Assembly (NCBI RefSeq): GCF_001545115.1
Contig: NZ_FCNU01000022.1
Location: 88,544 to 152,543, forward strand
Direction of reading: 5' to 3'
From: Candidatus Protochlamydia phocaeensis
GTDB lineage: Bacteria; Chlamydiota; Chlamydiia; Chlamydiales; Parachlamydiaceae
DNA length: 64,000 nt
Every line of letters begins with the position of its first letter. The first letter of the stretch is position 1. A program made the translations under genes and the position numbers. The notes under the pieces were generated by a model. That model searched no databases. It had not been told where the DNA came from and was given only the letters and a program-made list of their open reading frames with translations. Positions 46,479-50,969 of the stretch are shown one piece after another.

Positions 46479-49400
46479 ATGACACAGACATTATTTCAAT
46501 CAAATACGTTAAACGCGTCCCTTCACGATCACAATCTTCGCAATCGGGTTAGACAGCTCTTTACTTTTTTACGAGCGCTTATTCAACAGCGATTTCCTGC
46601 TCCGCGCCAGATTAGCGAGCGTGCCTTAGTATTGCCTTTATCGCGTTTGCCTAATCATGAATCCGTTCGATTTTCTTCTCCTGGTGAAGAGGCGGATAAG
46701 CCTCTTTTATATGTTGAGCGTCCCCAGCTTATTTCCTGTCCAGAGCCTCCAGAAGTGATTAATAATTGGTTGGAACAAGGATGGAATACTTGCCACCAAT
46801 CTCCTAAGGTCATTGAGAAGAAAATAGTGGGAAAAGATGACGCGGGCGCTGTCATTTTGGATTATTTTAAGGACGATTTAAAGCGAGAAGAAGCTTTAAA
46901 TAATTGGATAGAGAAAAGACATGTATGGGCGGAAGAACGTGCCCGCGCTGAACAGGCTCTTCAATTATTTGATTGCCTCTATCAGCAATTTGCTGTCTTA
47001 GAAAAAGAAGGTGGCCAGATTGAGCTGCTTGTTGGCGATGGAATGCTTAACTGGCGATTGCCTGCGGGAGGCATCCATCATCCCATCTTAATTAAGCGGG
47101 TTGAGCTTCGCTTTGACCCCGTTATTCCTGCCTTTTCCTTGGTGGATTCGGACAGACCTGTTGAAGTATACAATTCCCTTCTCTTATCTATTGATGAAAT
47201 TGATATTAAACGCCTGCAGGAGCGCTGTGCGGAGCTTAAAATCGCTCAATACCATCCGTTAGGGGAGACAGATACGTCTGCCTTTCTCAAAGCGTTAGTT
47301 CAAAGTTTGTCCCCGACTTATGGGGAGTTTCTTGATTCTCCGGCTGTAGGAGAGAAAAGCCATCCGCGCATATGGAGAGAGCCTATTCTTTTTTCTAGCA
47401 AGCGCAATCTTTCTTATGGAACAGCCATTGATGCCATCTTGCAAGATATCGAAAAGGCGCATCATTTTCCTCGGTCGCTTGCTGCCATTGTGGGGATCTA
47501 TAAGCCAACAGGGTGGATGGAGCAGCAGATTGGCCAGAAAGAAGAGCAAGTGCTTTTAGCGAAACCTGCGAATGTAGATCAAATAAATATTGTTCGGCGT
47601 CTTCATAAAACAGGTCTAGTGCACGTCCAAGGTCCTCCAGGCGCTGGGAAGACGCATACCATTGGCAATATTATTGGCCATCTTTTAGCTCAAGGCAAGC
47701 GCATTCTTGTGACAAGCCAGACGGAAAAAGCGCTTCGCGTGCTAAAAGAAAAAGTACCGGAGCCTCTCCAATCCCTTTGCGTGTCCGTTTTGGGAAATGA
47801 TAGGGAGGGCCGCAAGCAATTGGAAGAGACGATCAATGAAATCAACAACCGCTTAAGCCGGCAAGACCCGCAAGCGCTTTTGAACCAATGCCAGAGAAAA
47901 ATCCAGGAGCGAGAGGCCTTGCTGTTGCAGGAAAAAACATTGCGCGGCCGCTTAAAGGCTGTCATTGACTCGGAGTACAATGCTATAGAAATAGATGGTC
48001 TTTCATTGGACCCTAGCGCTGCCGCCCGTGAGATTGTATCGACCCAAGCCGGTAACGATTGGATTCCAGGGAAAGCAGGATTGAATGATCCTCTCCCGCT
48101 CTATCCGGAAGAGTTTGCTTTTCTTTACGCTAGCAATGATCGCTTGACTCTGCAAGATGAAATTGAGTTAAAAAGGGGACTCGTCAATAGTCAGGACATC
48201 CCGGCGCCAGATGTCTTTTCTTTACTTATTTCTGATTATCGTGCCTTGATGAACAATGATTTGAGGGCGCATGAGGACTACTGGTCCATTCCGGACAGAC
48301 CTTACCATTCCTTAAAAACTGCAGCCGATCATGTCTTTGCAGAGTTTGATCAAAGCCTTATCAAGCAAGCATGGCGGCCTAGCGCCATCATCGCAGGTAT
48401 GTTGGGAGAAAAAGAGCGTTTGCTATGGGAGACGCTTTGCCAGCGGATTGAACGAACGGCTGATCTTGCTAATCGGCTTGCCTTGCTTGAGCATTTGAAA
48501 CCGGCTATTAATGAAGACATTGGCTTAGAACAAAGCATAGAAATCTGCCAACAGATAAAAACATATCTGACCGCTAATGCCAAGTTTGGGATGATGACTT
48601 TATTGCTAAGGAGAGATTGGAAAAGGTTTATTCAATCCGCTAGAGTCGTATCAGGAGAGCCTAACCGTCAAGAGCATTTTGAAGCGCTTTGCCTTGTTTG
48701 TGAAATTAAAATAGCTCGCAGAGAGATTTCTCATTTGTGGGATCAATTAATTGCAAGTCAAGGAGGAAAAAGCTTTGACTCTTTAGGCGCTCAACCGGAA
48801 TTCGCTTGCCGGGCAATTATCCCGGAAATTCGCCGCTGCTTAAACTGGTATAATGCGGTGTGGGTTCCGCTTTTGTCCCTGCTTTCGCAAGAGGGACTAA
48901 ATTTGCCGCTCTTGTCAACGCATGTGCAAAGGCAAGAATCGCCTCTTGCGGATTATCTTCAAATTGAAGAAATGGTCATTCAGCGCCTCCCGGCTATCAT
49001 TTGTTCGGAGCTTTCTCGAAGAAGAATACATGAAATTGAGCAAGAACTGAGCCGTTATGCCCAGCATTTTGATTCGGCAGAAAATGGCCTAAATGCACAA
49101 TTTTTGCAGGCCCTTCGTACAAAAGATGTTGAGCTTTACCAGCAAAGCTATGCACGCCTGATTGAGTTAAATAACCTCAAGGGAATTTATGATAAACGAC
49201 AAGCCTGCCTTCAAAAATTGCACGCTGCTGTTCCTCAATGGGCCTTGGCAATTGCAAACCGCCTTGCGCCTCATGATCAAAGCGTATTGCCAGGCAATCT
49301 TTTATCTGCCTGGAGGTGGTTAAGGCTATCTTTTGAGCTTTGCCGCCGGCAGGAAGAGAATCTCTATTCTATTCAGCAAGATTTAGAAAAATGCCAAGAC

Positions 49401-50969
49401 CGTATTCGGCAGATCACCTTGGATTTAATCGAAAGCTTGACTTGGGGAAAGCAGATCCAGCTCATTCGATCGCAGCCTGAGTTGCAGCAGTCTCTTGCCG
49501 GCTGGCTTGAATTGCAGAGGAAATTGAATTCAACGCGGATTAAATCCATCCAGCAAAAACTCAAAACAGCTGCACAAAGGGAACTGGCTACTTGCTCTCA
49601 AGCTGTTCCCGTATGGATTATGCCTTTGCATGCGATTGCCGAAAATATTGATCCAACGACGACCAAATTCGATGTGATTATCATCGATGAAGCCAGCCAG
49701 GCTAATTTGCTTGCCCTGATTCCCATGTATATGGCAGATGAAGCGATTGTCGTGGGAGATCATGAGCAAACGACCCCTGAAGCGGCAGGCATTCAGCAAG
49801 CTCCGGTCCATCATCTAATTGAGACGCATTTACAGGGCATTCCCAATAGTGAGCTCTTTGATTTATTGACCTCCATTTATGACTTGGCTCGGCGTTGTTT
49901 TGGTGAAACGATTCTATTGACGGAACACTTCCGTTGCGTTCCTGAAATTATCGGATTTTCCAATCACCTTTCTTATGAAGGGAAAATTCTGCCTTTGCGC
50001 GAAGAAACCTCTTCTTTGCTAAACCCCGCTACAGTTACTTATCGAGTCGATGGTACGGCTTACAAAAAGCAGAATGAGGCAGAGGCAGAGGCAATTGCGC
50101 GCCTAATTAATGCCATGACACAGCACCCCGCTTATGAAGAAGCAACGATCGGCGTCATTTCACTCTTGGGTGAAGAACAAGCCCGTTTAATTGATGCAAA
50201 ATTAAGAGCGGGGCTATCAGCGAGCGAATACCTTAAGCGTCGCATCGTTTGCGGCAATCCGCCCCAATTTCAAGGGGATGAAAGGGATGTCATTTTTCTC
50301 TCAATGGTCGATAGCATGGGAGAAGAAGCGGGCTTTTTGAGGAAGAAAGGGGAAGGGGCATTCGATGCGAATAAAAAGCGATTTAATGTGGCTGCTAGCC
50401 GGGCACGCGATCAGCTGTGGGTGGTTCATTCGATGGATCCCATCTGCCATCTTAAGCCTGATGATATTAGAAGAAATCTTATTCTTTATGCCCAAAATCC
50501 TCAAGCAGTCCTGCAAGGAGTAAAAACAGAAATAGAAAAAGCAGATTCCATTTTTGAGATTGAAGTAATGGAACAATTGGCGCAAAAAGGCTATCGCGTT
50601 AAAGCGCAATGGGAAGTCGGGTATCATCGCATTGATATCGTTGTCGTCGGAGAATCCAAACGACTGGCAATCGAATGCGATGGCGATCGCTGGCATCCGC
50701 CGGAAAAACGTGAAATGGACTTGGAGCGTCAAGCAATTTTAGAAAGGTTGGGATGGACATTTGTTCGCATCCGCGGCTCTTTCTTTTTTCTCGATCCAAT
50801 TGCTGCGATGAAGCCAGTCTTCGATAAGTTAGAAGCGATGAAAATTGAGCGTCTTGGCCCGGATGCCCATTCATCCATTGTGACAGACCGCCGCTTAATT
50901 TCCGAATTAGAGCAGTTGGCTTGGCCCGAGCGCTTTCAAGAGAATGTTAGCTCAACCGAGTTTCAGTAA
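46479..50969 (+). CDS. Large SF1 (Upf1/DNA2-like, AAA_11/AAA_12) helicase fused to a C-terminal Vsr/DUF559-type restriction-endonuclease-like domain; defense-like, Hhe-type.
   Basis: Walker A VQGPPGAGKTHTIGN (~47631), Walker B VIIIDEASQ, motifs LLTEHFRC and VAASRARDQLWVV are present. The C-terminal HRIDIVVVGESKRLAIECDGDRWHPPEKREMDLERQAILERLGWTFVRIRGSFF is the DUF559 / Vsr-like PD-(D/E)xK fold. The ~380-aa N-terminal region has no assigned domain. Confidence 0.8.
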   Translation: MTQTLFQSNTLNASLHDHNLRNRVRQLFTFLRALIQQRFPAPRQISERALVLPLSRLPNHESVRFSSPGEEADKPLLYVERPQLISCPEPPEVINNWLEQGWNTCHQSPKVIEKKIVGKDDAGAVILDYFKDDLKREEALNNWIEKRHVWAEERARAEQALQLFDCLYQQFAVLEKEGGQIELLVGDGMLNWRLPAGGIHHPILIKRVELRFDPVIPAFSLVDSDRPVEVYNSLLLSIDEIDIKRLQERCAELKIAQYHPLGETDTSAFLKALVQSLSPTYGEFLDSPAVGEKSHPRIWREPILFSSKRNLSYGTAIDAILQDIEKAHHFPRSLAAIVGIYKPTGWMEQQIGQKEEQVLLAKPANVDQINIVRRLHKTGLVHVQGPPGAGKTHTIGNIIGHLLAQGKRILVTSQTEKALRVLKEKVPEPLQSLCVSVLGNDREGRKQLEETINEINNRLSRQDPQALLNQCQRKIQEREALLLQEKTLRGRLKAVIDSEYNAIEIDGLSLDPSAAAREIVSTQAGNDWIPGKAGLNDPLPLYPEEFAFLYASNDRLTLQDEIELKRGLVNSQDIPAPDVFSLLISDYRALMNNDLRAHEDYWSIPDRPYHSLKTAADHVFAEFDQSLIKQAWRPSAIIAGMLGEKERLLWETLCQRIERTADLANRLALLEHLKPAINEDIGLEQSIEICQQIKTYLTANAKFGMMTLLLRRDWKRFIQSARVVSGEPNRQEHFEALCLVCEIKIARREISHLWDQLIASQGGKSFDSLGAQPEFACRAIIPEIRRCLNWYNAVWVPLLSLLSQEGLNLPLLSTHVQRQESPLADYLQIEEMVIQRLPAIICSELSRRRIHEIEQELSRYAQHFDSAENGLNAQFLQALRTKDVELYQQSYARLIELNNLKGIYDKRQACLQKLHAAVPQWALAIANRLAPHDQSVLPGNLLSAWRWLRLSFELCRRQEENLYSIQQDLEKCQDRIRQITLDLIESLTWGKQIQLIRSQPELQQSLAGWLELQRKLNSTRIKSIQQKLKTAAQRELATCSQAVPVWIMPLHAIAENIDPTTTKFDVIIIDEASQANLLALIPMYMADEAIVVGDHEQTTPEAAGIQQAPVHHLIETHLQGIPNSELFDLLTSIYDLARRCFGETILLTEHFRCVPEIIGFSNHLSYEGKILPLREETSSLLNPATVTYRVDGTAYKKQNEAEAEAIARLINAMTQHPAYEEATIGVISLLGEEQARLIDAKLRAGLSASEYLKRRIVCGNPPQFQGDERDVIFLSMVDSMGEEAGFLRKKGEGAFDANKKRFNVAASRARDQLWVVHSMDPICHLKPDDIRRNLILYAQNPQAVLQGVKTEIEKADSIFEIEVMEQLAQKGYRVKAQWEVGYHRIDIVVVGESKRLAIECDGDRWHPPEKREMDLERQAILERLGWTFVRIRGSFFFLDPIAAMKPVFDKLEAMKIERLGPDAHSSIVTDRRLISELEQLAWPERFQENVSSTEFQ

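Follow-up and report, generated by a model that had tools for sequence, protein, structure and literature searches.

Among proteins in which a single polypeptide joins a helicase motor to a nuclease, Hhe is the best documented of those that resemble the one considered here. It is an experimentally used single-gene helicase–nuclease defence, and its genetics suggest that what it responds to is the activity of phage genes for DNA metabolism, not any one protein (bioRxiv 10.1101/2024.10.10.617714). Two other names come close, ProA (entered in NCBIfam as 'anti-phage protein ProA') and PDC-S37 (a single-gene phage-defence candidate of PADLOC v2). Both rest on hidden Markov model libraries: literature searches found no paper on PDC-S37, and none describing a defence protein ProA. 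Of the relatives that have the split helicase layout described below, Hhe is the sole one for which these searches turned up experimental data. Here we compare with them the helicase–nuclease gene of Candidatus Protochlamydia phocaeensis, at 46479..50969 on the plus strand of a 64,000-nucleotide stretch of contig NZ_FCNU01000022.1 (the window). The architecture of its product is of a known kind and is not a conceptual surprise. What is new is a distinct family, two regions of which model with confidence and lack known relatives.

The complete gene, stop included, begins with ATG and comprises 1496 codons followed by a stop. The list of open reading frames and the translation agree here with an earlier account made from the letters of the DNA alone (the sequence-only reading), and the 1496-residue product is identical to the NCBI 'AAA domain-containing protein' of the same organism, which bears out the Chlamydiae-like genome supposed in that account. 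A full-length alignment of 34 homologs, 41-67% identical to the query, displays 232 invariant columns spread along the whole length; together with the long intact frame, this rules out a chance open reading frame. From one end to the other the protein would consist of a variable N-terminal domain, the first half of a RecA1 lobe, a giant helical insert, the second half of RecA1, a RecA2 lobe and a Vsr-fold nuclease. All features of the gene given below lie on the plus strand.

The motor is recognised by two Pfam profiles, both matched above their gathering score: AAA_11 (1.5e-17, 64.7 bits against a cut-off of 27), in two separate stretches, and AAA_12 (1.6e-19, 70.7 bits against a cut-off of 27), over residues 1142-1317. 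With the REase_MTES_1575 profile of the nuclease, they substantiate the earlier proposal of one polypeptide uniting an Upf1-type superfamily 1 (SF1) helicase with a C-terminal Vsr-like nuclease. SF1 motifs I, Ia, II, III, V and VI were all located and are invariant in the family alignment (34-50 homologs). The first half of RecA1 (residues 365-482, 47571..47924) covers AAA_11 profile positions 3-137, is matched by AAA_19, AAA_30 and PDB sequences as well, and carries the Walker A motif GPPGAGKT (residues 385-392, 47631-47654; G385-T392 invariant) and motif Ia, VTSQTEKAL (47709-47735). The second half (residues 1041-1110, 49599..49808) is the second AAA_11 stretch. It holds the Walker B motif DEAS (residues 1070-1073, 49686-49697), with D1070, E1071, A1072 and S1073 invariant, and motif III, VGDHEQ (49752-49769), with V1092-Q1097 invariant. 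The RecA2 lobe (residues 1111-1320, 49809..50438), recognised by AAA_12 and by its invariant columns, contains EHFRC (49923-49937), motif V, QFQGDERD (50265-50288), and motif VI, NVAASRARD (residues 1303-1311, 50385-50411). The three motifs quoted in the sequence-only reading (GPPGAGKT, DEAS and VAASRARD, the last as part of NVAASRARD) are all found in place. The core, which that reading held to be complete, is complete indeed, but it is not contiguous: an insert of 558 residues separates the Walker A half from the Walker B half. The sole sequence relatives in the PDB are the Upf1/NAM7, SEN1 and IGHMBP2 helicases, with a match restricted to the core. Homology to Upf1, SEN1 and IGHMBP2 suggests 5′-to-3′ translocation on single-stranded nucleic acid.

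The nuclease follows RecA2, at residues 1359-1451 (50553..50831). It matches Pfam REase_MTES_1575 over the entire profile (positions 1-96 of 96; 1.4e-29, 102.4 bits against a cut-off of 38.2) and DUF559 more weakly (2.3e-05), which upholds the Vsr-like, DUF559-type domain announced earlier for this end of the protein. Anantharaman et al. (2013; PMC3710099) defined this type of REase, MTES_1575, as a nuclease with the Vsr fold. The family's own profile of this domain also matches PDB 3HRL, an 'endonuclease-like protein' (E=7e-4), with the D and the ExDG aligned. The domain is accordingly named here a PD-(D/E)xK nuclease, and the Pfam and PDB profile matches predict that it adopts the Vsr fold. 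Its signature is made of HRIDIVV (50625-50645), which contains D1386, and IECDGDRWH (50670-50696), that is, E1399-x-D1401-G-x-x-x-H1406. E1399, D1401, G1402 and D1403 are invariant, and D1386, H1406 and K1410 are conserved in at least 90% of the sequences. Like the Vsr/DUF559 endonucleases (PDB 3HRL, the MTES_1575 REase), the domain belongs to the same nuclease family and has the D...ExDG...H signature; unlike them, small and stand-alone or engaged in other fusions, it forms the C-terminal effector of a 1496-residue motor. Judging by their intact conserved motifs, both the helicase and the nuclease are probably competent for catalysis.

Beyond the nuclease, most members of the family (P0010, P0079 and P0090, for example) carry 100-350 extra residues, which the proteins of Protochlamydia and Estrella do not have. 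The extension of P0010 holds TPR repeats, and this homolog also has an N-terminal zinc ribbon; that of P0079 shows a sub-threshold match to DUF3320.

The N-terminal domain (residues 1-355, 46479..47543) and the insert (residues 483-1040, 47925..49598) together make up 61% of the protein and have no domain assignment. The sequence-only reading had spoken of an unassigned N-terminus. This was correct, as nothing in Pfam matches before residue 365, but incomplete, as there are two unassigned regions. Neither has a match in Pfam, NCBIfam, PADLOC or the PDB, and when scanned alone both gave zero NCBIfam or PADLOC matches at E<=1. AlphaFold models were built from an alignment of 50 sequences for each. 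The model that contains the insert (residues 470-1045) is made of helices nearly throughout, with a predicted local distance difference test score (pLDDT) of 90.2 and a predicted template modelling score (pTM) of 0.62, so that the 558-residue, family-specific insert in RecA1 is predicted to be all-helical. The N-terminal domain, also family-specific and of alpha/beta type, was modelled with similar confidence (pLDDT 90). A Foldseek search of the PDB with the insert model returned generic long-helix or coiled-coil proteins such as MukB and cohesin, with a best E of 0.15 and template modelling scores (TM) <=0.15. The insert nevertheless has 34 invariant residues, many of them tryptophan, and across both unassigned regions the invariant positions of the 34-sequence alignment are often tryptophan, proline or histidine. 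Searched with phmmer against 1.84 billion cluster representatives, the N-terminal domain matched 1090 proteins at E<=0.001, of which 270 reached E<=1e-30. In nearly all of the matches listed it begins a protein of about 1500-1800 residues, and the shorter matches are presumably fragments. Since nearly all listed carriers have this size and this N-terminal position, the domain appears to be restricted to the helicase–nuclease architecture. By analogy, we propose that it is a sensor or regulatory domain.

How, then, does the protein relate to Hhe, ProA and PDC-S37? The sequence-only reading had placed it with Hhe. As a statement about family membership this does not survive: the NCBIfam equivalog model NF042953 gives 159.8 bits against a cut-off of 2000, with a best stretch limited to residues 1033-1459, the PADLOC model of Hhe (PDLC02194) gives 112.5 bits over residues 1041-1456, and neither the N-terminal domain nor the insert matches Hhe. 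DUF4011, the N-terminal domain of Hhe that the same reading had suggested looking for, was found neither in the query (E<=0.1) nor in five diverse homologs (E<=0.01). As a statement about architecture it holds: the core and the nuclease map onto the Hhe profiles without change of order. Membership of ProA was rejected likewise (NF058533, 189 bits against a cut-off of 1500), although this is the best NCBIfam match. With the segments scanned separately, ProA matched only the Walker A half, the segment made of the second RecA1 half and RecA2, and the nuclease; a ProA match that seemed to extend into the insert (residues 696-1457) vanished when the insert was scanned alone. PDC-S37, the best PADLOC match (PDLC05009), reaches 186 bits, a figure for which PADLOC has no curated cut-off; its two matching stretches take in the helicase core and the nuclease and nothing else, and membership was rejected here too. 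Mokosh (MkoA with MkoB, or MkoC) was discarded: there is no PLD domain in the protein or in its neighbours, and the MkoA and MkoC matches concern the core only. By sequence comparison, the Protochlamydia protein is best placed in a distinct, currently unnamed family.

The kinship is nonetheless visible in the spacing of the motor, which was mapped by scanning the helicase halves separately against the family profiles. In the Protochlamydia protein the Walker A half occupies residues 365-482 and the motif II half starts at 1041, leaving a gap of about 560. The corresponding values are 296-407, about 916 and about 510 in the PDC-S37 profile, 649-764, about 1283 and about 520 in that of ProA, and 345-440, about 1261 and about 820 in that of Hhe (NCBIfam). 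They become 633-737, about 788 and a gap of only about 50 in the Mokosh MkoA profile, and 171-251, about 362 and about 110 in IGHMBP2. In Hhe, ProA, PDC-S37 and the Protochlamydia protein alike, a Vsr-type nuclease comes after RecA2, and its domain taken alone matches the nuclease part of Hhe (4.5e-18), ProA (8e-16) and PDC-S37 (1.2e-18). A giant insert splitting RecA1, combined with a C-terminal nuclease of Vsr type, thus appears to mark a group formed by Hhe, ProA, PDC-S37 and the present family. Upf1, SEN1, IGHMBP2 and MkoA/MkoC have a homologous motor core with the same motifs; they differ by their short RecA1 gap (about 50-110), by the lack of a Vsr-type domain, and by another effector or none (a PLD nuclease in Mokosh).

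Within the group, likeness and difference are easily stated. Hhe is also a single polypeptide without partner, with an Upf1-type SF1 core, a very large RecA1 insert and an MTES_1575/DUF559 nuclease after RecA2, but it starts with DUF4011, its insert has about 820 residues instead of about 560, and the Protochlamydia protein is some 300-400 residues shorter. ProA shares a homologous core and nuclease and an insert of similar size (about 520 profile positions), and differs in having about 650 positions before Walker A, compared with about 365. PDC-S37, itself a candidate, offers the closest layout, and its nuclease occupies profile positions 1221-1346 of 1550; alignment is confined to the helicase core and the nuclease. 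To the N-terminal domains and inserts of all three, those of the Protochlamydia protein have no detectable sequence similarity (E<=1).

The family is sizeable, with about 1,000 clusters at 50% identity, and patchy, its members being scattered over Chlamydiota, Bacillota, Nitrospirota, Acidobacteriota, Proteobacteria, Chlorobiota and Fusobacteriota. Full-length homologs (about 98% coverage) were found in Estrella lausannensis (62% identity), in a few metagenomic sequences (52-67%) and in a metagenome-assembled genome (MAG) of Negativicutes (56%); at 40-45% identity and the same coverage come Nitrospirota, Terriglobales, Deltaproteobacteria, Ferrovum and Chlorobiaceae. Only two named chlamydiae appear among the matches listed, and the next closest relatives belong to other phyla. 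A scan of genome contigs with a peptide pattern that proved over-specific gave one distant match, in Tetzosporium. As for mobile DNA, three of 72,556 plasmid records have a copy that spans 80% of the protein or more; the best is on a 50-kb Fusobacteria plasmid, and hundreds of further records share only the helicase core and the nuclease. Among 2.9 million viral contigs of IMG/VR, three encode a relative that spans most of the protein. In 50,697 phage genomes no full-length relative was found, and a phage origin was rejected on this ground. In two replicons the match is split: in the Deinococcus actinosclerus plasmid CP029776.1 (H4) it falls in two pieces and overlaps an annotated IS701 transposase, and in Rhizorhabdus wittichii CP021182.1 (H14) the split is similar, the transposases concerned in the pair being IS701 or IS1380. 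Both relatives appear to have been interrupted by insertion sequences (IS).

Nine genomic contexts of homologs were inspected: seven independent chromosomal ones, one plasmid and the contig of the closest homolog. No recurrent partner gene stands beside the homologs in any of them, which agrees with the earlier view of a single-gene system. In four of the seven chromosomal contexts, defence or defence-candidate genes of PADLOC adjoin the homolog. In Estrella these are a NERD protein gene, PDC-S14 (259 bits) and a full-length PDC-S41 helicase of Schlafen type (959 bits); in the Negativicutes MAG, a PDC-S02/YhcG nuclease (407 bits); in a deltaproteobacterium, PDC-M30A/B (377 bits), the locus being placed between two integrases; on a metagenomic contig, an NsnB/AriA-like ATPase (158 bits). 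The Ferrovum homolog is accompanied by an integrase, IS elements and a type I restriction-related gene, and the copy on the 50-kb plasmid by type I restriction–modification genes and an integrase within 10 kb. The Estrella locus deserves a further word. Directly downstream of the homolog, at 8625-10601 of locus L001, lies the gene of a 658-residue helicase of Schlafen group 3 type, which matches PDC-S41 over its full length, and the PDC-S14 and NERD genes lie upstream, so that this stretch of a chlamydial genome resembles a small cluster of defence candidates. On plasmid pZRK30-2 (CP102407.1), a small gene for a single-stranded-DNA-binding protein of the PC4/YdbC family (9750-9977) ends 15 bp before the helicase–nuclease gene; its product is a possible accessory factor, seen in this context only.

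We consider it fairly likely, from context, that the protein is a stand-alone helicase–nuclease that defends the cell against invading DNA, be it phage, plasmid or other mobile elements. Defence is plausible because homologs often adjoin defence or mobile-element genes, because the layout is that of Hhe, ProA and PDC-S37, and because a single gene shows a patchy, non-syntenic distribution. A scenario may be sketched. The N-terminal domain, the insert or both would hold the enzyme inactive until a cue linked to the invader is detected; a DNA structure, a replication intermediate or a protein of the invader are candidate cues. The Upf1-type motor, of the SF1B kind, would then be released and translocate on single-stranded nucleic acid at the expense of ATP, and the tethered Vsr-type endonuclease would nick or cleave DNA, with the outcome that the invader is destroyed or the infected cell halted. 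From the comparisons made above we infer that the function is defence, and likewise what the substrate and the trigger would be and what the two novel regions would do.

Several points weigh against defence. Support comes from context, and it is from context that a defensive role is deduced for any member of the family; a sensing function is attributed to the N-terminal domain and the insert by analogy. The contexts are nine, and the figures given for them are plain counts. Most of the supporting neighbours are PADLOC 'candidate' (PDC) systems, themselves defined by association, and two homologs stand in purely housekeeping surroundings. Among the neighbours in the window, the generic core of a SNF2 helicase is all that a defence model recognises, and there is no tRNA, no integrase and no significant flanking repeat, only short repeats at chance level. 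The gene itself has a guanine-plus-cytosine content (GC) of 0.46, and of 0.43 at third codon positions (GC3), both typical of the genes of the window (z=0.6 and -0.01). The anti-phage or anti-plasmid role put forward in the sequence-only reading thus remains plausible by virtue of the homologs' neighbourhoods, while nothing in the window itself indicates a defence island.

The features just listed would suit a housekeeping enzyme of DNA repair or recombination, analogous to Dna2 or AddAB, processing ends or stalled forks in the DNA of the cell itself. Helicase–nuclease fusions are classic repair enzymes, the composition of the gene matches the rest of the genome, the window has no surrounding defence genes or marks of mobility, and of the two homologs placed among housekeeping genes one is a few kb from recR and uvrA-like genes. 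Such a role fits poorly with a patchy phyletic pattern devoid of synteny and with the absence of the gene from the equivalent region of sister genomes. It fits poorly, too, with copies on plasmids, beside integrases or IS elements and beside defence-candidate genes, and with the splitting of the Deinococcus plasmid copy by an IS701 transposase, which implies that the gene is dispensable. We hold this repair role to be unlikely. Slightly less likely again is a cargo role, in which the gene would serve a mobile element, excluding competitors or stabilising the element, the chlamydial copy being a domesticated remnant. Homologs are indeed found between two integrases, in an IS-rich island with an integrase, beside an integrase on the 50-kb plasmid and on the three IMG/VR contigs. 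No single type of element carries the gene, however: the 50,697 phage genomes hold no full-length match, relatives covering most of the protein are confined to three of the 72,556 plasmid records and three of the 2.9 million viral contigs, and the window has no features of an element. In its mechanism, moreover, this explanation largely overlaps with defence.

That PDB sequence relatives are limited to Upf1/NAM7, SEN1 and IGHMBP2, and that the core also matches MkoA and MkoC of Mokosh, could evoke an enzyme of RNA surveillance or decay. The fused effector is, however, a domain of the Vsr/DUF559 type, a family of recognised DNA endonucleases; motors of the Upf1 kind move along single-stranded DNA as well, and the Pfam scan revealed no RNA-binding or RNase domain. 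An RNA-directed role seems quite improbable to us. More improbable by far would be a secreted chlamydial effector that cuts the DNA of the amoeba host, or foreign DNA co-resident in the host cell. The idea of foreign DNA in the host cell had been raised in the sequence-only reading, and the gene does adjoin one for a eukaryote-like F-box protein. Yet free-living bacteria of many phyla make up most of the family, a spread that leaves action in the host cell without support; the chlamydial proteins have no additional domain, not even the C-terminal extensions present elsewhere, and Pfam detects no eukaryote-like domain in the protein.

Defence against invading DNA remains the explanation that we favour. 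At the Protochlamydia locus, no recognisable island can be delimited, because tRNA, integrase and significant repeats are all absent, and the gene, typical in GC and GC3, does not look recently acquired. Its neighbours look accessory and are lower in GC: a divergently transcribed SNF2 helicase gene, two proteins without family and the F-box protein. The sequence-only reading had envisaged that the gene could be a core chlamydial helicase in syntenic position. It is not. The Estrella copy and the window have zero neighbours in common, and in two sister Parachlamydiaceae genomes (transketolase 82-83% identical) none of the genes of the 42-58 kb part of the window lies near tkt, the transketolase gene. 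The genes that flank tkt in these two genomes (LPG_synthase_C, DUF72, DUF6790) have homologs located 30-50 kb from tkt in the window (8613..9653, 25930..27241), which indicates extensive local rearrangement around tkt in the Parachlamydiaceae.

The SNF2 helicase gene (43232..46075, minus strand) is transcribed divergently from the helicase–nuclease gene. An AT-rich intergenic region of 403 bp (46076..46478), which the two genes share, is the presumed promoter region, by its position. Promoter-like hexamers read in it at 46326-46354 (plus strand) and 46209-46182 (minus strand) belong to a set of sites not more numerous than in shuffled sequences, and the promoter and terminator scans did no better than shuffles. 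SNF2 was tried as a conserved partner and rejected, being absent beside the Estrella copy, beside the closest homolog and beside all other copies. Its product has only six close relatives, all metagenomic, which cover 66-70% of it, and its N-terminal 300 residues or so appear unique in sequence. In this N-terminal part, three in-frame tandem copies of 102 nucleotides (45308-45613; the other two 75% and 70% identical to the first) encode a triple repeat of 34 residues. The contig of its closest relative carries no recognisable helicase–nuclease; two genes cut by the contig ends there have no Pfam record. On the other side, at 52124..52999 (minus strand), is the gene of the 291-residue F-box protein (Pfam 2.6e-11), the F-box being a eukaryote-like motif that is characteristic of amoeba-symbiont effectors. 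This gene and the unassigned open reading frames 51107..51814 and 53506..54894, within a low-GC segment at 51-54 kb, have the lowest GC of this part of the window (0.37-0.40). Further away, at 35739..41768 (minus strand), tandem paralogues of argininosuccinate synthase (37069..38331 and 38335..39669) are flanked by a Lyase_1 (argH-like) gene on one side and an amino-acid ABC transporter of three genes on the other; this duplication is unusual for a reduced genome.

Finding such a protein in the Chlamydiae had been called unusual in the sequence-only reading. This is only partly right, and overstated, for a CRISPR-Cas system and a conjugative megaplasmid have been described in Protochlamydia naegleriophila (PMC5010888). 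A broader proposal, which is tentative and a little less likely than not, is that the gene is the founding example of a new, widespread family of single-gene defence, that its N-terminal domain and insert constitute a new sensor of invaders, that the family forms with Hhe, ProA and PDC-S37 a superfamily of immune proteins, each a split-RecA1 helicase with a Vsr nuclease, whose sensors are interchangeable, and that it guards amoeba-dwelling chlamydiae against conjugative plasmids or chlamydiaphages encountered within the host. Were defence to be confirmed, the family would be a fourth branch of the helicase–nuclease immune proteins that include Hhe, with the same motor and cutter and with N-terminal domain and insert swapped. 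Comparing the branches could then reveal the parts that sense infection, for which the two confidently modelled domains without known relatives are candidates. Pfam, NCBIfam (June 2026) and PADLOC v2 label these proteins just 'AAA domain-containing protein', so that they are missed in censuses of defence systems. Finally, if its defensive role is confirmed, the gene would be among the few candidate defence genes of the Chlamydiae, and would bear on the way in which obligate intracellular bacteria handle plasmids and phages within amoebae, a setting for gene exchange.

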